Positions 15,941 to 43,103 of a stretch of 49,039 bases of DNA are shown piece after piece. How positions within the stretch are numbered: the first letter of the stretch is position 1; each line of letters opens with the position of its first letter. The notes beneath the pieces are model-generated. The model did not search any database, had not been told where the DNA came from, and saw nothing but the letters and a program-made list of their open reading frames with translations. The DNA is taken from positions 1 to 49,039 of the forward strand of contig JAESRG010000001.1 of NCBI GenBank assembly GCA_016764785.1. The letters run 5' to 3'. The DNA comes from Paracoccaceae bacterium (GTDB lineage Bacteria > Pseudomonadota > Alphaproteobacteria > Rhodobacterales > Rhodobacteraceae). The position numbers were made by a program, and so were the translations under genes.

Positions 15941-16060
15941 GAGCCCGACCCTAACCCTCCCCTGAGACGGGAGAGAATTGGTTCCGCATCCTTGAACACA
16001 TTCTCCTTGATGAATGTAAGTCTCTGTGAGAGGATAAACCCTCAATTCAGAGGTTTACTT

Positions 16061-16969: not shown

Positions 16970-17488
16970 TTACTGACGAATCCAGTTTTCAACGATTACC
17001 CCGTCGTTATCCGCCTGAAAACTTAAGTTGTTTCCAGAGCAGGTATAGGTGCCGGTTACGCCGCCGCCCATCGGGGCAGTCTCGTCGGTAAACGGCGTAT
17101 CGATGAACATCGGCTCGTCGCCCCCTAAGTAGAGTTCAGCCGAGACGCTAAACTCGTATTCGCCCAAATCGAAGTCAAAGGTGCCGCCATCTGCGATCAC
17201 CGAAAAGTCACTGGTTCCGCTCATGGTAATAACAGTGCGGGGTGCTCCGGGATTCTGGACATCCACAATCATGTCATTGATGAGATAGCTGCCGCTGTCA
17301 TCGGTAAATATCATCAAGATTTCGCCAGTGATTTCAACGTTCTCGGCCCCCGGTATTGTGTTGAACTGATCGGTAAATTCCTCCATATCTGGAGACCAAC
17401 TGCCGGTTAGGCAGGAATCAATTGCTAAAACCGGCGTCGCGACCAGTGTCACAGCCAATGTAGAAAGAATTTTTGGAAAACGCTTCAT
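16970..17488 (-). CDS. Secreted hypothetical protein
   Basis: 172-aa ORF with Sec-type signal MKRFPKILSTLAVTLVATPVLA. I recognised no family. It is convergent with the MBL gene, with only 3 nt between the stops. Confidence 0.6.
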   Translation of the reverse strand: MKRFPKILSTLAVTLVATPVLAIDSCLTGSWSPDMEEFTDQFNTIPGAENVEITGEILMIFTDDSGSYLINDMIVDVQNPGAPRTVITMSGTSDFSVIADGGTFDFDLGEYEFSVSAELYLGGDEPMFIDTPFTDETAPMGGGVTGTYTCSGNNLSFQADNDGVIVENWIRQ

Positions 17489-17687: not shown

Positions 17688-20525
17688 ATGACCAAACATC
17701 ACCAGCCAGCGTTGGATACTTCGCCAGCCGTCAGCGACGAAATTCGTCAGACCACTTGTTATATGTGCGCCTGTCGTTGTGGAATTGATGTTCATATGAA
17801 AGACGGCAAAGTCAAATATATTGAGGGAAATAAAGACCATCCGGTCAACAAAGGCGTGTTATGCGCCAAGGGTTCTGCCGGTATAATGCAGCATTACGCG
17901 CCCTCACGTTTGCGCAACCCGATGAAGCGGGTGGGTGAACGCGGCGAAGGCAAGTTTGAAGATATTTCATGGGATGAAGCGTTTGAGATCGCAGCGGGCT
18001 GGTTGAAACCCATTCGTGAAACCGCCCCTGAAAAGCTAGCGTTTTTCACGGGGCGGGACCAATCACAAAGCATGACCAGCTGGTGGGCGCAGGCGTTTGG
18101 CACTCCGAATTACGCGGCGCATGGTGGGTTTTGTTCGGTCAATATGGCGGCTGGCGGCATCTATACAATGGGCGGGGCGTTCTGGGAATTTGGCACACCA
18201 GACTGGGATCGCACCAAGCTGTTTATGATCTTTGGTGTGGCCGAGGATCACGATTCAAACCCCATTAAAATTGGTCTTGGTAAGCTGAAAGCACGCGGGG
18301 CCAAGGTGATTGGGGTCAACCCTGTGCGCTCGGGCTATAATGCCATTGCCGATGAATGGGTGGGCATTACGCCGGGAACAGATGGGTTGTTTATTCTGGC
18401 GATGGTGCATGAATTATTGCGTGCTGGTAAGGTCGATCTGGATTATCTGATCCGCTATACCAACCTGCCATTTTTGGTGAACACTGATGAGACCAGTGAC
18501 GAATCCGGCCTGATGATCCGCGACGCGGATGGCAAAGAAATGGTGTGGGATCGGGTGAACGGCAAAGCCGTGCCGTGGGATACCAAAGGCGTAAAACCGG
18601 CGCTGCACGGCCCGCAATCTGTTGATGGTGTGACCTGCAAACCCGCGTTTGAGATCATGGCCGATAAATACATGACCGATGAATACACCCCCGAGGCGGT
18701 CGCTGATCGTTGCGGTATTTCCGCTGATCGCATTCGCAAAATCGCCGCTGAACTGGCGCAGGTCGCATTTGAAGAAGAAATCATCCTCGACATCCCTTGG
18801 ACCGACTTTAAGGGCGAAAAGCACGACAAGATGATCGGCCGCCCTGTCAGTTTTCATGCGATGCGCGGAATCTCGGCGCACTCCAACGGTTTTCAGACCG
18901 CGCGCGCGTTGCATATGCTGCAAATTCTGCTGGGCTCGGTTGAGGTTCCCGGCGGCATGCGTTTCAAACCGCCATACCCAAAACCGGTTGAGGGCCACCC
19001 GAAACCGCATCACACTGTCACCCCCGGCAAGCCGTTGAACGGCCCGCATTTGGGGTATCCGCGTGGGCCAGAAGACTTGTGTATTGACGCAGACGGCAAG
19101 GCCAAACGCATTGATAAGGCCTTCACGTGGGAGAACCCGTTATCGGCGCATGGCATGATGCATATGGTGATTTCCAACGCCCATGCCGGTGATCCATACA
19201 AAATTGACACGTTGTTTATGTACATGGCGAACATGTCGTGGAATAGTTCAATGAACACCGGCGGTGTAATGGATATGCTGCGTGACAAGGATGCAAACGG
19301 CGAATATGTAATTCCGCATATCATTTATTCCGACGCTTATAGCTCTGAAATGGTGGCGTTCGCCGATCTTATTTTCCCCGATACGACCTATTTGGAGCGG
19401 CACGATTGCATCAGCATGTTGGACCGCCCGATTTCCGAGGCTGACGCAATGGCCGACAGTATTCGCTGGCCAGTGGTTGAGCCTGACCGTGATGTGCGCG
19501 GCTTTCAAACGGCGCTGATTCAGCTGGGCGTAAAACTTGGCTTGCCCGGAATGGTTGATGAAAATGGCGCGGCGATCTATGAAGATTACGCCGATTATAT
19601 CACCAACCACCAGCGCCGCCCGGGCATTGGACCATTGGCCGGTTTTCGGGGTGCTGATGGTAAAGGCAAGGGGCGCGGTGACCCTAACCCAACCCAAATT
19701 CAGGCCTATATTGATAACGGTGGCTTCTGGATCGACCATATCGACCCGGAAAACGCCTATTTCAAACCGTGGAATAAGGGTTATCAGGAATGGGCGGTCA
19801 AGCGCGGTATTTTCGATGTTGAAATGCCGTATGTGTTTACCGTCTATCAAGAAATCTTGCAGAAATTCCGTAACGCTGCCGATGGTAAAGGCGCGCTTCA
19901 GCCGCCCGACCATCTGCGCGCGCAGCTTTCAGCAACGATGGACCCTTTGCCAATTTGGTATGAACCATTTGAGCAAACTATAATAAATCAAGACGAATAT
20001 CCGATCCATGCCCTGACCCAGCGGCCAATGGCGATGTATCATTCGTGGGGGTCACAAAATGCGTGGTTGCGCCAGATCCACGGCACCAACCCATTGTTTG
20101 TATCGGGAGAGCTGTGGGAACAACATGGCTTTACTGACGGCGATTGGGCTGTCGTGACCTCGATCCACGGCGAAATTCAGGTACCGGCGGTGCGCATGGA
20201 CGCCCTGAACGGCAAAACCATCTGGACATGGAACGCGATTGGCAAACGTAAAGGCGCATGGGCACTGTCGGAAGACGCGCCCGAGGTCACCAAAGGTTTT
20301 TTGCTTAACCATCTCATTCACGAATTATTGCCACCAAAGGGTGACGGGTTGCGCTGGGCGAATTCTGATCCAATCACGGGGCAAGCGGCGTGGTTTGACC
20401 TGCGGGTTAAAATAAAACGTATACCAAAGCCCGATCACATCCAGACAAAACCTGATTTTGCCGCGCAGAATTCTCCGGTTGGGCAAGGCCCGAAAAACGT
20501 CTCCTACGGGAAGGAATGGACATGA
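17688..20525 (+). CDS. soeA: Molybdopterin (bis-MGD) oxidoreductase catalytic subunit without export signal; best fit is sulfite:quinone oxidoreductase SoeA
   Basis: 945-aa ORF with N-terminal FeS motif CYMCACRC...LCAKG (C-x2-C-x3-C-x27-C). There is no twin-arginine signal. It is followed by overlapping 4-cluster ferredoxin and membrane-anchor genes and sits next to dsr genes. Confidence 0.7.
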   Translation: MTKHHQPALDTSPAVSDEIRQTTCYMCACRCGIDVHMKDGKVKYIEGNKDHPVNKGVLCAKGSAGIMQHYAPSRLRNPMKRVGERGEGKFEDISWDEAFEIAAGWLKPIRETAPEKLAFFTGRDQSQSMTSWWAQAFGTPNYAAHGGFCSVNMAAGGIYTMGGAFWEFGTPDWDRTKLFMIFGVAEDHDSNPIKIGLGKLKARGAKVIGVNPVRSGYNAIADEWVGITPGTDGLFILAMVHELLRAGKVDLDYLIRYTNLPFLVNTDETSDESGLMIRDADGKEMVWDRVNGKAVPWDTKGVKPALHGPQSVDGVTCKPAFEIMADKYMTDEYTPEAVADRCGISADRIRKIAAELAQVAFEEEIILDIPWTDFKGEKHDKMIGRPVSFHAMRGISAHSNGFQTARALHMLQILLGSVEVPGGMRFKPPYPKPVEGHPKPHHTVTPGKPLNGPHLGYPRGPEDLCIDADGKAKRIDKAFTWENPLSAHGMMHMVISNAHAGDPYKIDTLFMYMANMSWNSSMNTGGVMDMLRDKDANGEYVIPHIIYSDAYSSEMVAFADLIFPDTTYLERHDCISMLDRPISEADAMADSIRWPVVEPDRDVRGFQTALIQLGVKLGLPGMVDENGAAIYEDYADYITNHQRRPGIGPLAGFRGADGKGKGRGDPNPTQIQAYIDNGGFWIDHIDPENAYFKPWNKGYQEWAVKRGIFDVEMPYVFTVYQEILQKFRNAADGKGALQPPDHLRAQLSATMDPLPIWYEPFEQTIINQDEYPIHALTQRPMAMYHSWGSQNAWLRQIHGTNPLFVSGELWEQHGFTDGDWAVVTSIHGEIQVPAVRMDALNGKTIWTWNAIGKRKGAWALSEDAPEVTKGFLLNHLIHELLPPKGDGLRWANSDPITGQAAWFDLRVKIKRIPKPDHIQTKPDFAAQNSPVGQGPKNVSYGKEWT

Positions 20526-21268
20526 CGCAGCTTCCCGCATCCACAAAGAAAAAACTGGGGTTGGTAATTGATCTAGACACCTGCGTGGGCTGTCATGCCT
20601 GCGTGATTTCCTGCAAGGAATGGAACACCACAAGTTACGGCGCGCCGCTTTCAGACGTTGACGCATATGGCGCTGACCCCGTGGGCACTTTCCTGAACCG
20701 TGTCCACACATTTGAGGCCAAACAAGAAGGCTGTTCAGCCCAAACTGTGCATTTTCCGAAATCCTGCCTGCATTGCGAAGACGCGCCCTGCGTCACCGTT
20801 TGCCCCACAGGCGCCAGCTATAAACGCGAGGAAGACGGCATTGTATTGGTGAATGAGGACCACTGCATCGGCTGTGGTCTGTGCGCGTGGGCCTGCCCAT
20901 ATGGGGCGCGTGAACTCGACAAAGTTGAAGGGGTTATGAAAAAATGCACCCTGTGCGTTGACCGGATTTATAACGAGAATATCCCCGAAGAAGACCGCAT
21001 TCCAAGTTGCGTAAAAACCTGCCCCGCAGGTGCGCGGCATTTTGGGGATTTCAACGACCCAAATTCAAATGTGTCAATTCTGAGCGCCGCACGTGGCGGC
21101 ATGGATTTGATGCCGGAACAGGGCACTAAACCGGTCAACAAATACCTACCGCCCCGCCCCAAGGCTGACATTGTCCCTGAACTGGATGTTCTGGGGCCAT
21201 TGCTTGCACAAAACGAAAAAACCGGCGGATTTTTGGGTTGGTTAGACCGCACATTGGAGAAATTGTAA
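20516..21268 (+). CDS. soeB: 4x[4Fe-4S] ferredoxin-type electron-transfer subunit (SoeB-like)
   Basis: 250-aa ORF with four Cys clusters (CVGCHACVISC, CLHCEDAPCVTVCP, CIGCGLCAWACP, CTLC...CVKTCP). Its start overlaps the soeA stop (ATG 20516 or 20522). Confidence 0.7.
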   Translation: MDMTQLPASTKKKLGLVIDLDTCVGCHACVISCKEWNTTSYGAPLSDVDAYGADPVGTFLNRVHTFEAKQEGCSAQTVHFPKSCLHCEDAPCVTVCPTGASYKREEDGIVLVNEDHCIGCGLCAWACPYGARELDKVEGVMKKCTLCVDRIYNENIPEEDRIPSCVKTCPAGARHFGDFNDPNSNVSILSAARGGMDLMPEQGTKPVNKYLPPRPKADIVPELDVLGPLLAQNEKTGGFLGWLDRTLEKL

Positions 21269-22143
21269 TGCATCCGGCACCCTCGGTAATTATCTTCACT
21301 GCCCTGTCGGGGCTTGGGTTTGGCTTGATGTTCTGGATGGGCCTCGGCCTGCCAGCAGTTGAGGGCACAACAGCCGCGATTTTTGCGGTTTTGGCAATGG
21401 GATTGGCCACGATTGGACTATTGTCCTCAATGTTTCACCTTGGCAATCCGCAACGGTTTTTGCGTGCGCTGACCCAATGGAAAACCTCGTGGTTATCGCG
21501 TGAGGGCATTTTGTCTATTGCGACGCTCGGGGTATTTTTTATCTATGCCTGCCTGTGGGCATTCTTGGATAATCGCGTTGTTTTACTGGGGTATTTGTCG
21601 TCAGTAATGGCGATGGGGACGGTGTTTTTTACCGCGATGATCTATGCGCAGATGAAAACCGTGCCGCGCTGGAATGCGATGAGCACACCGCTGTTATTCT
21701 TGCTCTATGCTGCTGGCGGTGGAGCGCTTTTGGCCGCTCAAATGACCGAAGCCATGCTGTTGCTGGCCGTGTTGGCTGTCGTGCAGGCAGGAGCGTGGAT
21801 CCAAGGGGACGGGGCCTTTGCAAAGTCTGGATCAACCATTGAAACAGCCACCGGATTGGGGGCGCTTGGCAAGGTGCGTTTGCTCGAAAAACCCCATTCC
21901 GGCACCAATTATTTGATGACCGAAATGATCCATGTGATCGGGCGGAAACATGTGACGAAATTACGGGTTATTTCGATCTCGCTTATGGCGGTTCTGCCGG
22001 TTGTTCTTATTTTGCTAACCGACGTCGGCCACATGGTTGGCGGGCTTTTAATCTTGCTGCATCTGGTCGGGTTATTTACAGCTCGCTGGCTGTTTTTTGC
22101 AGAAGCCGAGCATGTGGTCGGTTTGTATTACGACAAACGTTAA
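21268..22143 (+). CDS. soeC: Polytopic membrane anchor subunit (SoeC-like, DmsC/NrfD-type)
   Basis: Hydrophobic ORF. ATG at 21268 forms a TAATG overlap with the soeB stop (MHPAPSVIIFTALSGLGFG...). The track start at 21238 is a non-ATG start inside soeB. Confidence 0.65.
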   Translation: MHPAPSVIIFTALSGLGFGLMFWMGLGLPAVEGTTAAIFAVLAMGLATIGLLSSMFHLGNPQRFLRALTQWKTSWLSREGILSIATLGVFFIYACLWAFLDNRVVLLGYLSSVMAMGTVFFTAMIYAQMKTVPRWNAMSTPLLFLLYAAGGGALLAAQMTEAMLLLAVLAVVQAGAWIQGDGAFAKSGSTIETATGLGALGKVRLLEKPHSGTNYLMTEMIHVIGRKHVTKLRVISISLMAVLPVVLILLTDVGHMVGGLLILLHLVGLFTARWLFFAEAEHVVGLYYDKR

Positions 22144-22243
22144 CATCGATAAACCAGTTGCCTAAGGCCAGCTCAGACGGTATCGCTGGGTCAGCCATAA
22201 TGTGATATTCAGCCAATATAGCAATTTCCCCCATGAGGTTCCC

Positions 22244-22741
22244 ATGTCGCTTTCCCCCGCCATTTCAAAAGCTTTAAACGAACAAATTAACCACGAGATG
22301 AGCGCGTCTTATCATTATCTGGCCATGTCGAGCTACTTCGAAGCGCGCGACTTGAAGAAATTCGCGGCACTGTTTCGCGAGCAGTCGGCCGAGGAAACTC
22401 AGCATGCGATGAAAATATATGACTATGTTTTCACCCGCGGCGGCGAGGTGCGTCTAGGCAATATTGATGCTTTGGTGGTCAACTTTCAGACCGCTGAGGA
22501 AGTGATCCGAACCGCGCTGAAAATGGAACAGGGCGTGACCGCGCAGATTAACGCGATCCATGCGCTCGCCGTTAAGGAAATGGATGTTGCAACGCAGGTT
22601 CTGATGAACTGGTTTGTTGATGAACAGGTTGAGGAAGAAGACAAGTTCCAGACCCTGATCACCAAAGTCGCCGCCGCTGGCGAGGACGACTGGCGGTTGC
22701 TGATCTTGGAAGACGCGCTTGATTTGGGTGTTGCGGAATAA
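22244..22741 (+). CDS. ftn: Ferritin (non-haem, FtnA-like)
   Basis: MSLSPAISKALNEQINHEMSASYHY...EETQHAM...MEQ...WFVDEQVEEE aligns by eye with E. coli FtnA ferroxidase-centre residues. ATG at 22244 has GAGG upstream; the track start at 22202 is a GTG. Confidence 0.8.
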   Translation: MSLSPAISKALNEQINHEMSASYHYLAMSSYFEARDLKKFAALFREQSAEETQHAMKIYDYVFTRGGEVRLGNIDALVVNFQTAEEVIRTALKMEQGVTAQINAIHALAVKEMDVATQVLMNWFVDEQVEEEDKFQTLITKVAAAGEDDWRLLILEDALDLGVAE

Positions 22742-24181
22742 TTAGAGCGTATCTTGAGCGTGTAAGGTCATCTGGTGATGGGCTTTATCGCTTTCGGTAA
22801 ACCACTTAAGGTCATCGCGCAGGCTGACGACCGATCCGATGATAATCAGCGCTGGGCCTTTGATGCCCGAATCCAAAACCTTGTCATGGATATCGCCAAT
22901 GGTGCCTGTCACAACCTGCTGGTTGGAGCGGGTGCCATTATCGATCACCGCAGCAGGGGTTGCGGGGTTTAGCCCGTGTTTGACAAATTGTTCCGACAGG
23001 GTGCCAAGGCTGGACAGGCCCATATAAACCACGACGGTTTGAGAGGGGTTGATCAGTGTTGGCCAATCCAGATCCAGCACGCCGTCTTTGCCATGCGCGG
23101 TGATCAGCACGCAAGATTGCGCGTGGTCACGATGGGTCAACGGAATGCCCGCATACGACGCGCAGCCTGACGCCGCCGTAATGCCGGGGATCACCTGAAA
23201 CGGGATGTCATGCTTGGCCAATTCTTCAAGTTCCTCGCCGCCACGGCCAAAGATAAACGGGTCGCCGCCTTTTAGGCGCAACACCCGTTTGCCTTGTTTG
23301 GCAAGGCTGACCATCAGTTGGGTGATGTCTTCTTGCACCATCGTGTGTTGCTGGGGCATTTTTCCAACATTCACCCGTTCAGCGTCACGCCGCACGAGGG
23401 TCATGATTTCATCGCTGACCAGCCTGTCGTACAGCACGACATCGGCGCGTTGCATCAGGCGCAGGGCCTTGAATGTCAGCAGGTCGGGGTCGCCAGGGCC
23501 AGCACCGACCAGATAAACCTCGCCCATCTGCGGGGTGTCGGCGGCTGTGGCGGCGATGTTGAGGTCTTCCAGCAGGCGTTTGCCTGCGGCCTCGGCGTCT
23601 CCGGCCAGAAAGAAGTCACCGACTTGGCCCTCGATGGTGTTTTCCCAGAAATGACGGCGTTGATCAGTTGACGTCAACTTATCCATCACCGCGTCGCGAA
23701 ATCCGCCGACAAATTTGGTCAGACGACCGTAAGCGGCGGGCAGCATGACCTCAATTCTGGCGCGCAGAATACGGGCGATGATGGGCGCGTTACCCCCCGA
23801 TGAAACAGCAACAATTAGCGGAGATCGATCCACCACTGACGGGGTGATAAAATCGCAATATTTGGTTACATCGGCGATGTTAACCAACACGCCCGCCTGT
23901 TTAGCCATACGGTGCAGGGCTTCGTCACGGGCATCGTTTTCGGTCGCGCCATAGGCAACGATGCATCCGTCAAAGTCGGCTTGTTCAGGGGCGCGAGGAA
24001 AATATGTCAGGCTTGGATGGCTGAGGAGTTTGTCGAATTCCGGCGACAGGTTCGGGCAGAACACAAAGACATTGGCGCCAGCGGTCAACGCCCGCTCAGC
24101 CCGCCGCGCGGCGGGGGTGCCCCCCCCGTCGATGATGATTTTCTTGGCTTTAACGTCAAGGAATATCGGCAGATGATCCAT
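22742..24181 (-). CDS. cysG: Siroheme synthase (precorrin-2 dehydrogenase/ferrochelatase fused to uroporphyrinogen-III C-methyltransferase)
   Basis: 479-aa ORF. The N-terminus is MDHLPIFLDVKAKKIIIDGGG and the C-terminal SUMT domain carries VYLVGAGPGDPDLLTFKALRLMQRADVVLYDRLV. Its stop abuts the ferritin stop with 0 nt between them. Confidence 0.9.
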   Translation of the reverse strand: MDHLPIFLDVKAKKIIIDGGGTPAARRAERALTAGANVFVFCPNLSPEFDKLLSHPSLTYFPRAPEQADFDGCIVAYGATENDARDEALHRMAKQAGVLVNIADVTKYCDFITPSVVDRSPLIVAVSSGGNAPIIARILRARIEVMLPAAYGRLTKFVGGFRDAVMDKLTSTDQRRHFWENTIEGQVGDFFLAGDAEAAGKRLLEDLNIAATAADTPQMGEVYLVGAGPGDPDLLTFKALRLMQRADVVLYDRLVSDEIMTLVRRDAERVNVGKMPQQHTMVQEDITQLMVSLAKQGKRVLRLKGGDPFIFGRGGEELEELAKHDIPFQVIPGITAASGCASYAGIPLTHRDHAQSCVLITAHGKDGVLDLDWPTLINPSQTVVVYMGLSSLGTLSEQFVKHGLNPATPAAVIDNGTRSNQQVVTGTIGDIHDKVLDSGIKGPALIIIGSVVSLRDDLKWFTESDKAHHQMTLHAQDTL

Positions 24182-24384
24182 TATTGTTTTGCCGCCCAGT
24201 CGATCAGGCTTTGGCTGATGGCCGCTGCACTGTCGCGGTCAATGTCGATGGCGGTAATGCGATTACCCTCACGGAAAGTCAGGCGCAGCAGGTGCATGCC
24301 GCTTTCGAATTCATGGTTTTGAATCGACAGTTTGCGCATATACGGCAGCTCATAATCCTCAATCGGAGTCATTTTACCGGTCAT
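24181..24384 (-). CDS. Small hypothetical protein (67 aa, or 63 aa from the ATG at 24372), no cysteine, family unknown
   Basis: The ORF is coupled to cysG by a TAATG overlap at 24181 and overlaps, or directly follows, the upstream 66-aa ORF. Sequence: MTGKMTPIEDYELPYMRKLSIQNHEFESGMHLLRLTFREGNRITAIDIDRDSAAAISQSLIDWAAKQ. Confidence 0.55.
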   Translation of the reverse strand: MTGKMTPIEDYELPYMRKLSIQNHEFESGMHLLRLTFREGNRITAIDIDRDSAAAISQSLIDWAAKQ

Positions 24385-24574
24385 AACGCGTGCCCCTTGT
24401 GAACACAGCCTCTAGCCGCCATTCCCATTTTTTCGGGGTATCGCGATAGTCTGGTTTGACGTCAAATTCGATAAACATATGGCCGGATTCGCCTGCGTTG
24501 GCGACCAGCCGTTCGAGCTCCTCAAAGCTGGCGACATCGGGATTACCGATGATAAGATCTGATAGCTTGGCCAT
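24374..24574 (-). CDS. Small hypothetical protein (66 aa), no cysteine, family unknown
   Basis: ATG at 24574 is preceded by AGGGGG and lies 3 nt after the TauD-like stop. Sequence: MAKLSDLIIGNPDVASFEELERLVANAGESGHMFIEFDVKPDYRDTPKKWEWRLEAVFTRGTRYDR. Confidence 0.55.
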   Translation of the reverse strand: MAKLSDLIIGNPDVASFEELERLVANAGESGHMFIEFDVKPDYRDTPKKWEWRLEAVFTRGTRYDR

Positions 24575-24577
24575 TTT

Positions 24578-25501
24578 TTACCCCCTGATAAGTCTGTTAT
24601 GGAACCTGATGCGATACATCAAGCGTTGGCTTGCGCCGGTTTGCGCGCTGGGGTCGAACCCGGCGCGATTGTGGAGCGCGTTATTTGACAGCACCCCTTG
24701 CCCGGCTTTTAGCGTAATCTGGTGCATATGCCCGGTTTCGGTTTCAAGAATATGTTGCAGGGCTTTGGCCGCTGGCGCTGCTTGAGCTGACCACGTGATG
24801 CTGCGGGTGCGGGCTGTATAGCGCATGATCAAATTGCCATTTTCAACGGCAAAAACCGGGCCAATGCTGACCGGACGGATGGATCCATCGGATTCAGTAT
24901 TGGGCGGAATGCTCATGGCATCAGGCCGCATCAGGGCTGCGATAAAATCAGGGTTTAGGTCGCGCAACCGGATATATGCAATCTCAGGGTCGATGATCTG
25001 GTTCTGCCCACCTTGATCAGCGGGCCGCGCGCAATGCAGCACAAAACTGCGGATTTGGTCGTTGGCCGCGTTGTAATATCCATCAGTGTGCCAGTTCATG
25101 GCTTTGCGCGAATACGGAATGAATCCGCGCTGATTTTCCTGTTCAGACACCCGCAGCGCCACCACGCCGTGGTCGCCAGCCGAGCGGTGGGTCTCAGCGA
25201 TTTTCAGGTTAAAATGTTTGGTGAACCGGCGCAGAGCCTTGGCAATTTCAGCGTCATCCTTGGGTTGGTTCTGAACAGCATACAGCGCAAAATTAGTTTT
25301 GCTGCATTGCGTCAGAATCAAATTACGCTCGGTTGACGTCGGGTTGGCCAAATCGGCAATTTTAATGAAATCCAGCGATTTTGAGGCGGTTGCCGCGGCC
25401 AATTTTTGGCTTCTCCAGCTATTATACATAACAGAATTGTTTAATTGCCAGTAGCCTTCGGTAACACCAGAAAACGCATCATTATTGATATTATCGTTCA
25501 T
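24578..25501 (-). CDS. TauD/TfdA-family Fe(II)/2-oxoglutarate-dependent dioxygenase-like protein
   Basis: It has the HxD facial-triad motif in NWHTDGYY, then LHCARPADQGGQNQIID, and a distal His in SNNALHNRAGF. I prefer the ATG at 25501 (MNDNINN; GGAAAGG upstream); the track start at 25507 is a TTG. Confidence 0.65.
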   Translation of the reverse strand: MNDNINNDAFSGVTEGYWQLNNSVMYNSWRSQKLAAATASKSLDFIKIADLANPTSTERNLILTQCSKTNFALYAVQNQPKDDAEIAKALRRFTKHFNLKIAETHRSAGDHGVVALRVSEQENQRGFIPYSRKAMNWHTDGYYNAANDQIRSFVLHCARPADQGGQNQIIDPEIAYIRLRDLNPDFIAALMRPDAMSIPPNTESDGSIRPVSIGPVFAVENGNLIMRYTARTRSITWSAQAAPAAKALQHILETETGHMHQITLKAGQGVLSNNALHNRAGFDPSAQTGASQRLMYRIRFHNRLIRG

Positions 25502-25581
25502 TATCAATGGCCTTTCCGGGGCTGGATCGAAAATCTGGCAGGCGGTTTTGCAAGGCTCGGGCGGCTTTGCCGGAATTTTAC

Positions 25582-25610
25582 TTTACATTCCATTATTGTA
25601 ATATATAAAT
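25582..25610 (+). promoter_or_regulatory. Sigma70-like promoter candidate for the dsr operon
   Basis: TTTACA (25582-25587), a 17-nt spacer, then ATAAAT (25605-25610), in the AT-rich part of the 238-nt divergent region. Confidence 0.25.
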
Positions 25611-25702
25611 TTAACAGAGGAATATGCAATCGGTTTTACAGATTGTCTTATGGCTTAACCGGCCCGCACTGGGTTTGACCATAAAGCAAGCAGTCGGGAG
25701 AG

Positions 25703-25716
25703 TTATCAACCGATAA
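25703..25716. promoter_or_regulatory. Perfect dyad TTATC-N4-GATAA 24 nt upstream of the dsrA ATG
   Basis: ttatcaaccgataa. It resembles ttatccagtgatag upstream of soeA (17543-17556). Confidence 0.3.
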
Positions 25717-25739
25717 GCAAGCATAATAGGGAGAAGGCC

Positions 25740-27014
25740 ATGAAAGACGGCGATCAAGTCAAGAATCCAACACCGATGCTGGACCAGTTGGAGGACGGCC
25801 CGTGGCCGAGCTTTGTCACCGGTCTGAAACGTCTGCGCGACACCGAGGGCGCGCAATATGCGCCGATGATGAATGACCTTCTGGGGCAGCTCAACAAATC
25901 CTATGAGACCCGCACCGGGTACTGGAAGGGTGGCACGCTGTCGGTTTTTGGCTATGGCGGCGGAATTATCCCGCGTTTTTCCGAAGTGGCCAGCGAATTT
26001 CCTGCGTCAAAAGAATTCCACACGCTGCGGATTATGCCGCCGGCTGGATTCCATTACACCACCGACTTGCTGCGCAAGCTTTGCGATATCTGGGAAAAGC
26101 ATGGCTCGGGTCTGATTGCGTTTCACGGCCAGTCTGGCGACATTATGTTTCAGGGCTGTACATCTGAAAATGCACAAAAAGCCTTTGACGAACTGAACGA
26201 GCTTGGCTTTGACCTTGGCGGAGCGGGGCCAGCCTTGCGGACTGCAATGTCTTGCGTGGGACATGCGCGCTGCGAACAGTCTTGCTTTGATGGGGCGAAA
26301 GCCCATCGCGGGATCATCAACAAGTTCCTTGATGAAATGCACCGGCCATCGCTGCCCTATAAGTTCAAATTCAAGTTTTCAGGTTGTGGCAATGACTGCG
26401 TGAACGCGATTCACCGTGCCGACTTTGCGGTGATTGGCACGTGGCGTGACGATATCAAGATTGATCAGGAAAAGGTCAAGGAACATATCGCTGAAAAAGG
26501 CCGAAAATATACCATTGATACGGTGATTTCCATGTGTCCAACCCGCGCGATTTCGCTGAATGACGATGATACATTTGACATCGACAACAAGTCCTGTGTG
26601 CGCTGCATGCACTGCATTAACGTGATGACCAAAGCCCTGTCGCCCGGCGATGACCGTGGCGCATCAATCATGATTGGGGGCAAACGATCATTAAAAGTTG
26701 GTGACCTGATGGGCACCATGATCAAGCCGTTTATCAAGCTGGAAACCGAAGAAGATTTCCAGGAGTTGGAGGATTTCGCCGAGGCCTGCATCGAGTTCTT
26801 TGCCGAAAACGCTCTGGAGCATGAACGCATCGGTGAAACCATCGACCGGATCGGGGTTCCGGCCTTTTTGGAGGCGCTGGATATCGACGCTGACCCGAAT
26901 ATGGTCAACCACCCGACCACCTCCAGCTATGTGCGCACCGACGATTTTGACGAAGAATCGGCAAAATGGTTCGAACGCAAAGCCGCGGAAAAAGGGTTGG
27001 TTGTTGACGCTTAA
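25740..27014 (+). CDS. dsrA: Dissimilatory sulfite reductase alpha subunit, oxidative (reverse) type
   Basis: 424-aa ORF. It is collinear by eye with Allochromatium vinosum DsrA (TPMLDQLEDGPWPSFVTGLKRLRD, YWKGGTLSVFGYGGGIIPRFSEV, KFKFSGCGNDCVNAI, CVRCMHCINVM). Confidence 0.95.
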   Translation: MKDGDQVKNPTPMLDQLEDGPWPSFVTGLKRLRDTEGAQYAPMMNDLLGQLNKSYETRTGYWKGGTLSVFGYGGGIIPRFSEVASEFPASKEFHTLRIMPPAGFHYTTDLLRKLCDIWEKHGSGLIAFHGQSGDIMFQGCTSENAQKAFDELNELGFDLGGAGPALRTAMSCVGHARCEQSCFDGAKAHRGIINKFLDEMHRPSLPYKFKFKFSGCGNDCVNAIHRADFAVIGTWRDDIKIDQEKVKEHIAEKGRKYTIDTVISMCPTRAISLNDDDTFDIDNKSCVRCMHCINVMTKALSPGDDRGASIMIGGKRSLKVGDLMGTMIKPFIKLETEEDFQELEDFAEACIEFFAENALEHERIGETIDRIGVPAFLEALDIDADPNMVNHPTTSSYVRTDDFDEESAKWFERKAAEKGLVVDA

Positions 27015-27020
27015 GGGGGC

Positions 27021-27039
27021 GGTGGGGTGAAACCCCACC
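27021..27039 (+). other. GC-rich stem-loop in the dsrA-dsrB spacer
   Basis: ggtgggg (27021-27027), loop tgaaa, ccccacc (27033-27039). No T-tract follows. Confidence 0.5.
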
Positions 27040-27078
27040 CTACGAATTTCGCCGTTATGCGGCTAGGGAGATGATATT

Positions 27079-28161
27079 ATGAACGAGATGAGTAAAAAAC
27101 CACGGACGCCAGACGAAGTCGGTGTTCCTGACCCGAAGCCATTCATGCATCCGTTGAGTATCAAGAATTACGGCACATGGGATTATCACGACCGCCCGCG
27201 CACCGGCGTTTTGCGCCATGTGGCCAAATCGGGTGATGAACTGTGGACAGTGCGCGCAGGCACTCAGCGTCAGATGGACGTTTATACCATTCGCAAGCTT
27301 TGCGATATTGGCGATAATTTTGCCGACGGCTTTGTGCGTTTTACCACCCGTTCGAACATCGAATTTATGGTTGCTGACGAAGCCAAGGTAGCCCCGCTGA
27401 TCGAGGAACTGACAGCCAGTGGTTTCCCGGTTGGCGGGACTGGCGCCTCGGTGTCGATGATTTCGCACACCCAAGGTTGGCTGCATTGTGACATTCCGGG
27501 GACCGATGCGTCTGGCGTTGTCAAAGGCCTGATGGACATGCTGCACAGCGAGTTCATTCAGGAAAAAATGCCGAACCGGGTGCGGATTACCACGTCTTGT
27601 TGTCAGATTAACTGTGGCGGGCAGGGCGATATTGCGATCAATGTGCAGTATACCAAACCCCCGAAAATCAACCATGATCTGGTGGCAAATGTCTGTGAGC
27701 GCCCCGCCGTTGTGGCCCGTTGCCCTGTGGCAGCGATCCGGCCTGCAATGGTCAACGGCAAGCCAAGTCTTGAGATCGACGAGAAGAAATGTATCTGCTG
27801 TGGCGCGTGTTATCCGCCGTGCCCGCCGATGCAAATCAACAGTGCCGAAAGCACCAAGATCGCGATCTGGGTTGGGGGCAAGCACTCGAATGCACGCTCG
27901 AAACCGACGTTTCATAAGCTTGTTGTGGCTAACCTGCCAAACAATGCGCCGCATTGGCCCGAGGTTAACGCGATCGTTCTGCGCATCGTCAAAGCCTATA
28001 AAAAGGATGCGAAACATTGGGAGCGCATGGGCGAATGGATTGAACGCATCGGCTGGAGCCGGTTTTTCGAGATGACCGAACTAGCGTTCACTAAGCACCA
28101 TATTGATACATGGACGGGCGCACGCAAAACCATGAACGCCTCGGCGCATGTGCATTTCTAG
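27079..28161 (+). CDS. dsrB: Dissimilatory sulfite reductase beta subunit
   Basis: 360-aa ORF directly after dsrA, with AGGGAG upstream. It has a ferredoxin-like insert (CICCGACYPPCP) and sulfite-reductase cluster-binding Cys motifs. Confidence 0.95.
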   Translation: MNEMSKKPRTPDEVGVPDPKPFMHPLSIKNYGTWDYHDRPRTGVLRHVAKSGDELWTVRAGTQRQMDVYTIRKLCDIGDNFADGFVRFTTRSNIEFMVADEAKVAPLIEELTASGFPVGGTGASVSMISHTQGWLHCDIPGTDASGVVKGLMDMLHSEFIQEKMPNRVRITTSCCQINCGGQGDIAINVQYTKPPKINHDLVANVCERPAVVARCPVAAIRPAMVNGKPSLEIDEKKCICCGACYPPCPPMQINSAESTKIAIWVGGKHSNARSKPTFHKLVVANLPNNAPHWPEVNAIVLRIVKAYKKDAKHWERMGEWIERIGWSRFFEMTELAFTKHHIDTWTGARKTMNASAHVHF

Positions 28162-35149: not shown

Positions 35150-36361
35150 ATGGAACGGATCGTTTATCGCGAACTAAAATCTACCCCGCAGGTCTGGGGC
35201 ATGCTGGCGTTGCTGGCTGGGTTTATCGGCGCAGCTGCGGCCTCGGTTTTGTATGTTGAACATCACGGTCATATCGTGACCGGCATGACCAATCAGATTG
35301 TCTGGGGCTTGCCACATGTGTTTGCGATTTTCCTGATTGTTGCCGCGTCGGGCGCGTTGAATGTGTCGTCGATCGGCTCGGTTTTTGGCAAGACAGCGTA
35401 CAAACCTGTGGCACGGCTTTCCAGCCTTTTGGCGATGGCGTTATTGATGGGCGGCTTGGCGGTGCTGGTGCTTGACCTTGGGCGGCCTGACCGTTTGATC
35501 GTGGCGATGACCAAGTATAATTTCCGGTCAATCTTTGCGTGGAACGTGCTGCTTTATACCGGCTTTCTGGCTGTTGTTGGCGTTTATCTTTACGCACAAA
35601 TGGCGCGGGGTGTGCATAGCTTTGCGCTTCGCACCGCCGGCACGGTTGCGTTCCTGTGGCGGTTGGCACTGACCACTGGCACCGGCTCAATTTTTGGCTG
35701 GCTGGTGGCACGACCGGGCTATGATGCGGCGATCATGGCCCCGATGTTTATCGCCATGTCTTTTGCGTTCGGCCTCGCGTTTTTCCTGATCGTGATGACT
35801 TGGACTTGCCGCATGACCACGCGGGTTTTCAGCCCCGAGCTGCGCACCCGTCAGGCACGCCTTTTGGGCGTGTTTGTGGCCGTGGTGGTTTACTTTACGA
35901 TCATCCAGCACCTGTCGAATATCTATGTCGCTGAGCACACGGGTTATGAGCGGTTTATCCTGCTGGAGGGCGGTCTTTATACATGGCTTTTCTGGGGGGC
36001 GCAGATCGGGCTGGGCAGCATCGTGCCGATGATCCTGCTGTTTCACCCCAAGTTGGACACCAAATTTGGCTATGTCATTCTGGCGGCGCTTTTGGTGGTG
36101 CTGGGCGGGTTTGCCCAATTATACGTGATTATCGTCGGCGGGCAGGCTTACCCGATGGACATGTTCCCCGGGCTCGAGGTTTCAAGCAGTTTTTACGACG
36201 GAGTAGTCAGCCAATATTCCCCCAGCATTTATGAATGGGCGCTGGGCATCGGTGGCGTTGCTCTGACTCTGTTTGTAACCGGATTGGGCATGAAGTTCTT
36301 GCGCATTCTGCCCGACAACCTTACCGATGAGAACATCGATCCTTCAACACTTGCAGGTTAA
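35150..36361 (+). CDS. dsrP: DsrP, NrfD-like integral membrane subunit
   Basis: 403-aa polytopic membrane ORF in the canonical position after dsrO. Confidence 0.85.
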   Translation: MERIVYRELKSTPQVWGMLALLAGFIGAAAASVLYVEHHGHIVTGMTNQIVWGLPHVFAIFLIVAASGALNVSSIGSVFGKTAYKPVARLSSLLAMALLMGGLAVLVLDLGRPDRLIVAMTKYNFRSIFAWNVLLYTGFLAVVGVYLYAQMARGVHSFALRTAGTVAFLWRLALTTGTGSIFGWLVARPGYDAAIMAPMFIAMSFAFGLAFFLIVMTWTCRMTTRVFSPELRTRQARLLGVFVAVVVYFTIIQHLSNIYVAEHTGYERFILLEGGLYTWLFWGAQIGLGSIVPMILLFHPKLDTKFGYVILAALLVVLGGFAQLYVIIVGGQAYPMDMFPGLEVSSSFYDGVVSQYSPSIYEWALGIGGVALTLFVTGLGMKFLRILPDNLTDENIDPSTLAG

Positions 36362-36362
36362 A

Positions 36363-37370
36363 ATGCTTACAGAACCCCATCCATTTGCCAAATTTGTCGC
36401 GATCCTTGGTCGCGGAAAAACCAAACAACGCCATCTGACGATTGAAGAAGCGTCGGAATCTATGGCGATGATTTTGCGCGGTGAGGCCCGCCCCGAACAG
36501 ATCGGTGCGTTCCTGATGTTGCTGCGCTTGAAAGAGGAATCGCCGGGTGAAATCGCTGGCTTTACCCTTGGCACCCGGGCGGTTCTGAAACTGCCCGGTG
36601 TGATCCCCGAGGTTGATATCGACTGGTCGTCATATGCGGGCAAACGCCGGCAATTGCCGTGGTTTTTGCTGTCGGTGATCCTGCTGTCGCAAAACGGCGT
36701 TCGGGTGATGATGCATGGCTCGGGCGAGCACACGCCGGGCCGGATCTATACCGCTAGCACGCTAGAATATCTGGGGTATCCGGTGGCCACAACCCTTGCT
36801 GAGGCGGCTGAGCAAATCGCCGAACGGAACCTCGGGTTTATCGCGTTGGAACATCTTTGTCCGCCGCTGCAAGACCTGATGGAGCTAAAACCCATTTTAG
36901 GATTGCGCTCACCCGTGAACAGTTTTTCGCGGATGATTAACCCGTTTAATGCACCGGTGATGATGCAAGGAATTTTTCATCGTGGCTTTATGGATATCCA
37001 TGCGGGCGCCGGAATTTTGCTGGGTCAGCCAGTGACAACCGTGTTCCGTGGCGAGGGCGGCGAGATTGAACGTCGGCCAAATAAACCCACCGTCGCTGGA
37101 ACCGCGCGGGATGGTAAAATCACCACCGAAAGCTGGCCGCAATTGCTGGAAGACGGCCACGCGGCCGCGGACCTTGAGATGGATCTAGGCAATCTGGTGG
37201 CGGTTTGGCAGGGCAAAAAGGTCAGCGAATATGCCACGGCCTCAATCACCGGAACCTTGGCGATTACGCTGAAATCATTGGGCAAAGCTGACACGGTTGA
37301 GGCCGCGCAGGCCATAGCAAACGACATGTGGGACGCGCGCAATAAAGCCTTGTTGCCGCTGGTCGGCTAA
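36363..37370 (+). CDS. TrpD2/YbiB-family protein (anthranilate phosphoribosyltransferase fold without the PRPP motif)
   Basis: ATG at 36363 lies 1 nt after the dsrP stop. FAKFVAILGRGKTKQRHLTIEEASESMAMILRGEARPEQIGAFLMLLRLKEESPGEIAGF aligns by eye with E. coli YbiB. SSYAGKRRQ replaces the TrpD GTGGD motif, matching YbiB PSYNGARKQ. The track start at 36327 lies inside dsrP. Confidence 0.7.
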   Translation: MLTEPHPFAKFVAILGRGKTKQRHLTIEEASESMAMILRGEARPEQIGAFLMLLRLKEESPGEIAGFTLGTRAVLKLPGVIPEVDIDWSSYAGKRRQLPWFLLSVILLSQNGVRVMMHGSGEHTPGRIYTASTLEYLGYPVATTLAEAAEQIAERNLGFIALEHLCPPLQDLMELKPILGLRSPVNSFSRMINPFNAPVMMQGIFHRGFMDIHAGAGILLGQPVTTVFRGEGGEIERRPNKPTVAGTARDGKITTESWPQLLEDGHAAADLEMDLGNLVAVWQGKKVSEYATASITGTLAITLKSLGKADTVEAAQAIANDMWDARNKALLPLVG

Positions 37371-42312: not shown

Positions 42313-42915
42313 TTAACCGTCAACCCACAGGTCGATTGCTTCGCGATTTAGGGCGTCGTCTTGGGGCCACTTAGATTGGTAAATGATGGTGATTCCAAGT
42401 TCTGGCAAGTATTTTGATTTCGTAACACCAAAGCCGTTCTCAGCCATGATATAGGTCTGATAAAAATCAAACGCGACGTATTCGCAATCACCGATCATCA
42501 CGTTTTCACTGGCGTGAACGGAATAAGAATAGGTCGCGGGCTCTACAAAATCGGGTTCGACTAAGGTCTGAATGCCGCCGCCAACCATACCTTCCACCAG
42601 TGGAAATACCGCTGCTATGTCAAAGTCGTATTCAAGATTGAAATCTCCGGTTGGGGTCCATGTTCCGGCTGTCCGCTCAAGAAAGTTGGTTTCGAAAATA
42701 CCGTTGACCATGTGATTTTGCCACGTTGTTTCCCGTTCAGCGTTATCGGTTCCGTTTTGAATGATAATCCCCGATTCACCCTGCCGGAAGTTTTCGGTAT
42801 CGCCAGAGCTGAACAAGACAGAAATGCCGGTGGTCATATCGGCCAATGTTGGGCATTGGGCAAAAACACCTGTTGGTACGGCAAGTAAAGAAATCATGGC
42901 GAAAGGGCGAAACAT
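42313..42915 (-). CDS. Secreted hypothetical protein
   Basis: ATG at 42915 gives signal peptide MFRPFAMISLLAVPTGVFAQ. I recognised no family. Confidence 0.55.
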   Translation of the reverse strand: MFRPFAMISLLAVPTGVFAQCPTLADMTTGISVLFSSGDTENFRQGESGIIIQNGTDNAERETTWQNHMVNGIFETNFLERTAGTWTPTGDFNLEYDFDIAAVFPLVEGMVGGGIQTLVEPDFVEPATYSYSVHASENVMIGDCEYVAFDFYQTYIMAENGFGVTKSKYLPELGITIIYQSKWPQDDALNREAIDLWVDG

Positions 42916-43103
42916 AGCTATATCCTTTTGAAATCGGTCAATGACGAGAACATAAGCCAATTATTCAATCAAGCAAAGACCCAGTTCACCCGTTTGCAAT
43001 TTTTGCAAAGCTGCAAAATTTCGATTTGTCATGATTGTTTGGCTTGACCTCGGTCAGTGAGATGCTAGGAAGCGGACGGCCCCCATCGTCGCGTCTGCGA
43101 TTG

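Follow-up and report, generated by a model that had tools for sequence, protein, structure and literature searches.

What could an oxygenase gene do that stands head-to-head with the genes of a sulfite reductase, and why would it be packed together with two very small genes and a siroheme synthase gene? This question is raised by a DNA stretch of 49,039 nucleotides from a Paracoccaceae bacterium (GenBank assembly GCA_016764785.1, contig JAESRG010000001.1, positions 1 to 49,039), hereafter the window, in which four tightly packed minus-strand genes face dsrA across 238 nt. An earlier note, made from these letters only, had described them as an uncharacterised module divergent from dsrA. The pathway of reverse dissimilatory sulfite reductase (rDsr) is a main bacterial sulfur oxidation route in sediments and low-oxygen waters, and current pathway schemes assign the oxygenase gene, dsrQ, no role, though hundreds of species from three proteobacterial classes carry it attached to dsrA.

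We find that the four genes very probably are the Rhodobacterales form of the dsrQ operon, divergent from dsrAB and connected with it by one control region that contains a conserved palindromic putative operator. Part of this is known, as dsrQ has a name and the window adds one more case to an arrangement that has been described. New, it seems, is that the two small proteins belong to the operon as integral and conserved components, that the TauD label is without support, that the coupling to cysG is clade-specific and that dsrQ and dsrA have a conserved putative operator in common. The papers that cite Lenk et al. for dsrQ (PMC7596348, PMC9371685, bioRxiv 10.1101/197269) mention neither coupled mini-proteins nor a link with cysG, hence both may be new detail.

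Gene order and distribution

The first gene of the operon, dsrQ (24578-25501, minus strand), encodes an oxygenase of 307 aa that starts at ATG 25501 and whose homologues begin with MNDN. Three nt beyond its stop codon follows the gene for a 66-aa acidic, cysteine-free protein of an unnamed family (24374-24574, minus strand), here called mini66, with AGGGGG 8 nt upstream. This overlaps by 11 nt with the gene for a 67-aa acidic, cysteine-free protein of family DUF6967 (24181-24384, minus strand), which in turn overlaps by 1 nt, as TAATG, with cysG (22742-24181, minus strand), the last gene of the operon. CysG is a trifunctional siroheme synthase by its match to the equivalog hidden Markov model NF007922 (593 bits, cut-off 400) and by the domains of all three activities (NAD_binding_7, Sirohm_synth_M, CysG_dimeriser and TP_methylase all present). 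The control region common to dsrQ and dsrA occupies the 238 nt at 25502-25739 and dsrA starts with the ATG at 25740. The genes dsrA and dsrB (together 25740-28161, plus strand; NIR_SIR and NIR_SIR_ferr domains) open the divergent dsrABEFHCMKLJOP...N cluster, and DsrA and DsrB are 74-89% identical to their counterparts of related alphaproteobacterial loci and 61-75% to those of gamma- and betaproteobacterial loci. The coordinates and junctions in the earlier note proved right to the base for all four genes and the 238-nt region. It had left two starts for the 67-aa open reading frame (ORF); the upstream, overlapping ATG is favoured over ATG 24372 because close homologues keep the N-terminal MT.KMT.

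The distribution was determined by a DsrQ-anchored scan with one genome per species, which shows DsrQ in at least 596 species-level genomes, all confirmed relatives; locus statistics were taken from the best 80. These are alpha-, beta- and gammaproteobacterial sulfur oxidisers, with two bins labelled otherwise (Bacteroidota, Spirochaetia), and they include Paracoccaceae, Hyphomicrobiales, Rhodomicrobium, Magnetospirillum, Sulfuricella and Gallionella, as well as Acidiferrobacterales, Thiohalobacter, Thiomargarita, Sedimenticola and Chromatiaceae. Among the loci with enough upstream flank, dsrA lies divergently within 1.5 kb of dsrQ in 46 of 62 and anywhere in the locus in 53 of 62. A hand tally of the per-locus table places mini66 near dsrQ at 52 of the 80 species-level loci. 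In Alphaproteobacteria and Gammaproteobacteria its start is mostly 0-31 nt, and in few cases up to about 425 nt, from the stop of dsrQ, offsets that are approximate since they were taken from longest-ORF starts. DUF6967 was found near dsrQ at 37 of 76 loci (those with at least 700 nt downstream) and cysG within 2 kb of dsrQ at 19 of 65.

A second set consists of 80 metagenome loci of the window's clade (Rhodobacterales-type) anchored on mini66, and here the order dsrQ, mini66, DUF6967, cysG is nearly invariant: DsrQ is directly upstream of mini66 in 77 of 78 loci, DUF6967 directly downstream in all 70, cysG follows DUF6967 in 57 of 61 and dsrA is divergent in all 58. The cysG link holds mainly in Alphaproteobacteria and the general link is to dsrA. 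The cysG coupling that the earlier note had stressed therefore stands for Rhodobacterales-type loci and not in general, the gamma- and betaproteobacterial loci carrying other genes; to its question whether the genes always co-occur, the answer is that co-occurrence with dsrA is general, that of mini66 with dsrQ frequent without being universal and that with cysG lineage-specific. Its central claim of a module is borne out by these statistics, which show it to be conserved and tied to dsrAB, and there are strong indications that the dsrQ operon is specific to rDsr-bearing bacteria.

The typical gammaproteobacterial operon reads dsrQ, mini66, a 242-aa protein without assigned function, a Cas6-family protein, the cysteine-less DsrC-like RspA and a rhodanese. 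In betaproteobacterial loci DUF6967, the Cas6-like protein and RspA adjoin dsrA, and dsrQ lies further downstream. The Cas6-family protein (PF09559, E=1e-60; e.g. L042:10028-10717) occurs without CRISPR context, in loci L030, L041-L048, L053, L054, L061, L062, L071, L074, L078 and L085, and the cysteine-less RspA beside it ends in ...RKGGY. Proteins of 242, 198 and 125 aa without a Pfam family recur in the gamma- and betaproteobacterial operons.

DsrQ copies distant from dsr genes (L033:7913-10004, L067, L058:7801-9895, L086:8443-9900) form two sub-clades, one of Thiotrichaceae, Thiomargarita and Sedimenticola and one that is Sulfuricella-like. In Sulfuricella-like genomes such a copy directly follows genes for a hemerythrin, a DUF2249 protein and a membrane protein. 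Two Peptidase_U32 (UbiU/UbiV-like) genes directly precede it in a Thiotrichales-like genome, and in Sedimenticola it is the gene of an HDOD signalling protein that does so.

The oxygenase DsrQ

The earlier note had held that the oxygenase lies outside the described dsr gene set. In fact it already has a name: according to Löffler et al. (PMC7596348), and likewise to PMC9371685 and bioRxiv 10.1101/197269, Lenk et al. (2012, ISME J 6:2178) gave the name dsrQ to the tauD-like gene that is found upstream of dsrA and divergent from it. The window gene agrees with the definition in PMC7596348, being tauD-like, directly upstream of dsrA, in opposite direction and from a sulfur oxidiser. It also resembles the dsrQ of the literature in being a TauD-superfamily gene divergent from dsrA in a dsr cluster of the Roseobacter-clade type, and Jhaorihella, Maritimibacter and Ruegeria have their genes arranged in this way too. 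In a Methylovirgula thiovorans paper the gene adjoining dsrAB is called "TauD/DsrQ" (PMC9371685), and in Hausmann et al. (bioRxiv 10.1101/197269) DsrQ stands under "unknown functions".

DsrQ matches PF02668 with E=3.8e-17 and 63.5 bits, against a gathering cut-off of 27, and is thus a member of the TauD/TfdA superfamily. Its iron triad HxD...H is formed by H138, D140 and H277, which are at least 95% conserved among 82 sequences and align with the metal ligands of TmpA. The AlphaFold2 model has a predicted local distance difference test (pLDDT) score of 85 and shows the TauD/clavaminate-synthase fold. Intact triad and confident fold model together make a strong case for DsrQ as a catalytically competent Fe(II)/2-oxoglutarate oxygenase. 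That it might be a pseudo-enzyme was considered and dropped because the metal triad is intact. The protein is basic, with an isoelectric point (pI) of 9.5. Among its conserved residues Arg is the most frequent and holds eight of the 50 most conserved positions.

Foldseek places DsrQ about equally distant (12-18% identity, template modelling (TM) scores of 0.55-0.64) from several PDB folds, the nearest being TmpA, TtnM, OrfP, AsnO, gamma-butyrobetaine hydroxylase (BBOX), VioC and CarC. The best matches in sequence and structure come from the clade of TmpA, BBOX and trimethyllysine hydroxylase: TmpA (6npb) is found with E=4e-4 in the profile search and with E=2.5e-12 in Foldseek, BBOX has a TM score of 0.64 and there is a weak match to TIGR02410. 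These enzymes measure 377-386 aa, whereas DsrQ with its 307 aa comprises the catalytic domain only, with no second Pfam domain match, and a quaternary-amine substrate has no obvious role in sulfur oxidation.

DsrQ and E. coli TauD both belong to PF02668, have the double-stranded beta-helix fold and carry an iron triad HxD...H, but alignment is confined to the five residues NWHTD (BLASTP E=0.28, hhalign probability 6.5%), past which no similarity is detectable. The sulfonate-binding residues of E. coli TauD are His70, Val102 and Arg270; the two sequences are not alignable outside the iron motif. The 50 best structural matches of DsrQ do not include TauD. The genomic logic differs as well, for neither tauABC nor other sulfonate-uptake genes were found in the window, its only ATP-binding cassette system is of the sugar type and adjoins glycoside hydrolases, and what recurs beside it across 160 related loci is dsr genes, cysG and genes of sulfur relay. 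DsrQ was therefore rejected as a TauD orthologue, lacking both full-length similarity to characterised TauD and linkage to tauABC, and the label "taurine dioxygenase" is unfounded. The TauD/TfdA-like designation of the earlier note is right for the superfamily and wrong if taken as orthology; by the same token, its worry that the gene might be an ordinary tauD that belongs with tauABC was settled in favour of the module.

These results bear directly on the sole functional idea in print, sulfite release from sulfonates (PMC7596348, PMC9371685), which was also the first hypothesis of the earlier note. DsrQ would free sulfite from intracellular or ambient organosulfonates or sulfite adducts, to be passed on to SoeABC, and the location of soeABC in the window (17688-22143), 2 kb away, agrees with this. 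All that the present analysis adds in support of that literature speculation is the superfamily membership. We consider it rather improbable, given the five-residue similarity to TauD, the absence of TauD from the top structural matches and the lack of tauABC or another sulfonate transporter in the window; moreover, it leaves the head-to-head linkage with dsrA over three classes and the coupled mini-proteins unexplained. If DsrQ were such a sulfonate scavenger the module would be of modest interest.

The small proteins mini66 and DUF6967

Whether the two small ORFs are genes at all is answered by their conservation. Across loci, substitutions at codon positions 1, 2 and 3 number 4755, 3471 and 11559 for mini66 and 449, 358 and 969 for DUF6967, and both are clearly real coding genes, kept across proteobacterial classes with their length and motifs. 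The view that the ORFs are not genes or that their adjacency is accidental could appeal to their shortness, to the one that is without a family and to promoter and terminator scans at chance level. It is refuted, to the point of being practically eliminated, by the conservation across classes, the excess of third-position substitutions and the near-invariant synteny in 80 independently anchored loci. In this respect too the module has withstood an outcome, unconserved or non-coding mini-ORFs, that the earlier note had named as fatal to it.

The same note could assign neither mini-protein to a family. This holds for mini66, which has no Pfam and no NCBIfam family, and not for the 67-aa protein, which over residues 4-65 of 67 matches Pfam DUF6967 (PF22295; 73.7 bits against a cut-off of 27, E=1.1e-20). 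The profile searches among those it had called for thus gave a family for the oxygenase (PF02668) and for the 67-aa protein and none for mini66. DUF6967 is found mainly in Alphaproteobacteria and Betaproteobacteria, and in betaproteobacterial loci it adjoins dsrA without mini66; a literature search found nothing on it.

For mini66, 183 word-matched homologues have 73-88% identity, and in Gammaproteobacteria the protein can still be recognised at identities as low as about 35%. When 1.84 billion representative proteins were searched exhaustively with HMMER, the family proved to be closed, with 106 clusters at 50% identity; almost all members are stand-alone proteins of 60-100 aa, and no informative domain fusion was found. 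The family occurs in Alphaproteobacteria and Gammaproteobacteria, plus a few unclassified bins. Residues S5, F17, L20, D38, P41, D45, P47, W50, E55 and F58 are invariant, the pI is 5.0 and the most conserved segment is predicted as a poorly ordered loop.

PDB profile searches with both mini-proteins gave nothing below E=0.009, the matches at that level being short and spurious. Using hhalign, no probability above 1% was obtained when the mini-proteins were compared with each other and with DsrC/RspA, DsrQ, the Cas6-like protein, c7, c9, c16, rhodanese and double-TusA of related operons. Hence mini66 is unrelated to DUF6967, and neither is related to any other protein found in related operons.

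The earlier note was right that both mini-proteins are free of cysteine, and their relatives have no conserved one either; a role as sulfur carriers was dropped because there is no conserved cysteine. Some NCBI records (P0126, P0196, P0222) name mini66 homologues "sulfur relay protein DsrC", a misannotation since the profile-profile probability against the genuine DsrC/RspA profile is only 0.5%. As there is no PF04358 match and mini66 has neither cysteine nor the ...AGLP... C-terminal arm of DsrC/TusE/RspA (PF04358), it was also rejected as a truncated DsrC. RspA itself is encoded within this dsrQ operon in gamma- and betaproteobacterial loci and in some of Hyphomicrobiales (MHY1_00075), but mini66 is not homologous to it and the window has no RspA gene.

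A better known small protein from such surroundings is DsrD, an allosteric activator of reductive DsrAB (PMC8794893), which is likewise small (about 70 aa), cysteine-free and encoded beside dsrAB. By analogy, the mini-proteins might be effectors or assembly factors of oxidative DsrAB that act independently of DsrQ and whose genes simply share a transcript with dsrQ. In size, in acidity and in having no cysteine they resemble DsrD, both mini-proteins are kept with cysG and dsrAB where dsrQ is lost, and DUF6967 adjoins dsrA in betaproteobacterial loci without being adjacent to DsrQ. DsrD itself is not known to occur in sulfur oxidisers. However, neither mini-protein gives a Pfam DsrD match even at E<=1, or any sequence similarity to it, and the mini66 model is not a winged helix, finds no DsrD structure and has no similarity in fold. 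The position also differs, as dsrD lies downstream of dsrB in sulfate reducers and the mini-protein genes are divergent from dsrA in sulfur oxidisers. Finally, mini66 is always immediately downstream of dsrQ when both are present, which suggests a closer tie between these two, and we regard effectors independent of DsrQ as a doubtful explanation.

The control region

In essentially all Paracoccaceae loci (L001-L024) a block ACATTC-N8-nAATGT is found 87-133 nt upstream of the dsrQ start, in spacers that have otherwise diverged. In the window it corresponds to the operator-like imperfect palindrome TTACATTCCATTATTGTAATATATA at 25583-25607 (plus strand), the sole zero-mismatch match in the window, and it is overlapped by promoter-like hexamers on both strands at 25575-25611. 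A generic promoter and terminator scan of the region gave an overall number of matches at chance level, and short repeats in the intergenic region were uninformative. From the position of this conserved putative operator we strongly infer that the dsrQ operon is placed for co-regulation with dsrAB.

A candidate for the regulator is suggested by the site deduced for the persulfide-sensing repressor SqrR, ATTC-N8-GAAT (PMC9774250), since a perfect version of the dsrQ/dsrA palindrome would contain this box. The exact palindrome ACATTC-TCCTTGAT-GAATGT, of the SqrR type, is present at 15998-16017 and is the only match in the window at up to one mismatch. It lies about 45 nt upstream of ATG 16061, the start of a gene for a metallo-beta-lactamase-fold protein with a signal-peptide-like N-terminus, and possibly serves the same regulon as a second site. 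The two sites suggest a candidate persulfide-responsive repressor that would govern both the dsrQ/dsrA and the metallo-beta-lactamase-fold operons.

Functional interpretation

Taken as a whole, the operon appears to be an accessory one, dedicated to and co-regulated with the oxidative DsrAB of oxygen-exposed sulfur oxidisers. The explanation that we put forward, tentatively and as a possibility well short of established, is that within this accessory operon DsrQ carries out an oxygen-dependent modification with mini66 as its partner. CysG would, by homology, make extra siroheme for DsrAB. DsrQ would act on a component of the Dsr system and not on an imported sulfonate, because of the near-obligate synteny with dsrA, the lack of TauD-specific similarity and the lack of transporters; its target could be a protein side chain, or else an anionic small molecule or cofactor. 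By its oxygen-dependent hydroxylation it might link the state of the Dsr system to how much oxygen is available. The acidic mini66, made in step with the basic DsrQ, would serve as an adaptor, or as a substrate via its invariant and flexible loop D-x-K-P-x-Y-x-D-T-P-x-x-W, and DUF6967 may be a second small Dsr-linked factor, associated with dsrA and not with DsrQ.

Several observations are consistent with this. The tight coupling of dsrQ and mini66 and the charge complementarity of their products (pI 9.5 and 5.0) fit a partner role. The oxygen theme is in line with the report of dsrQ from (facultatively) aerobic chemotrophs (PMC7596348) and with the Ruegeria dsr operon, which responds to thiosulfate only at 2% O2 (bioRxiv 10.1101/2024.06.14.599071). 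Coupling to oxygen also fits the oxygen-related neighbours of dsr-distant DsrQ (hemerythrin and DUF2249; the U32 pair) and the regulatory-looking RspA and Cas6-family genes of the gamma- and betaproteobacterial operons.

The cysG gene points to another function, in which CysG makes siroheme, DsrQ tailors siroheme or a precursor in an oxygen-dependent step and the mini-proteins are carriers or insertion chaperones. Aerobic and anaerobic enzyme pairs are known from elsewhere in tetrapyrrole biosynthesis and a tailoring DsrQ would parallel these. Its gene is co-operonic with a translationally coupled cysG in the window and in 57 of 61 related loci, the same cluster contains dsrN, a homologue of siroheme amidase, and a basic DsrQ with many conserved Arg residues is as expected for a polyanionic ligand such as a tetrapyrrole with eight carboxylates. 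There is precedent for siroheme genes within dsr clusters in dsrV/dsrW of green sulfur bacteria (bioRxiv 10.1101/197269), which similarly are dedicated siroheme synthesis genes linked to dsr; the difference is that here a single fused cysG, in certain lineages only, is part of a divergent operon and coupled to dsrQ and the mini-proteins. This function is nevertheless unlikely. In most gamma- and betaproteobacterial loci cysG is not in the operon (overall it is present in 19 of 65), the structural neighbours of DsrQ bind small zwitterions and not tetrapyrroles, anaerobic organisms with rDsr would require an alternative enzyme, and the only modification reported for the DsrAB cofactor is amidation (PMC10504309), none that depends on oxygen being known.

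The proposal that DsrQ modifies a Dsr component with mini66 as partner has to face a number of findings that weigh against it. Among the top 50 Foldseek matches of DsrQ are small-molecule hydroxylases and proteins of unknown function but no protein hydroxylases, which by structural comparison makes it less probable that DsrQ belongs to the 2-oxoglutarate-dependent protein hydroxylases of PHD, FIH or JmjC type, although a protein may still be its substrate. DsrQ of Betaproteobacteria and Thiotrichaceae occurs without mini66. Conversely, the Rhodobacteraceae lineage UBA5972 (L004-L007, L092) has kept operator, mini66, DUF6967 and cysG by dsrA, and no remnant of dsrQ is detectable in these loci. 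The three-helix model of mini66, built on a shallow alignment, has a moderate pLDDT of 68 and matches no known fold in Foldseek (best E 3.2), for which reason it is synteny and charge that speak for a role as partner or substrate. Unrelated regulators could account wholly for the oxygen dependence of dsr expression in Ruegeria, and the operon link with cysG is equally compatible with a role in cofactor tailoring.

A bolder version of the proposed modification, which we offer as a speculation with rather little probability, is that DsrQ, mini66 and perhaps DUF6967 constitute an oxygen-sensing or oxygen-conditioning device that belongs to the reverse-Dsr pathway and has so far gone unrecognised. 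DsrQ would hydroxylate a small dedicated protein, or by means of an adaptor a Dsr protein or cofactor, and thereby tune DsrAB activity or expression to oxygen. If true, this would explain why dsrQ is found in aerobic sulfur oxidisers and why the rDsr of roseobacters works only at low oxygen. In roseobacters the dsrQ set is joined to a dedicated siroheme synthase and has a conserved putative operator in common with dsrAB. The three small genes hence form a concrete target, in host organisms for which genetic tools now exist, for the question how rDsr adapts to or is controlled by oxygen.

Other features of the window

The sulfur-oxidation island of the window comprises soeABC, a ferritin gene, the dsrQ operon, dsrABEFHCMKLJOP, a Glycos_trans_3N gene, dsrN, tusA and dsrE2, as well as genes for a YeeE-type transporter and an ApbC-like protein. 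An Rfam scan of the whole window gave 0 matches. The ferritin-family gene (22202-22741, plus strand) lies between soeC and cysG and is convergent with the latter; in related loci its position is taken by a globin (Jhaorihella) or a YeeE-type sulfur transporter. The Glycos_trans_3N gene (36327-37370, plus strand), which lies between dsrP and dsrN, encodes a 347-aa anthranilate phosphoribosyltransferase-like protein that is outside the usual dsr gene list. At the edges of the island are two minus-strand ORFs without a Pfam family, at 16970-17488 (172 aa) and 42313-42960 (215 aa).

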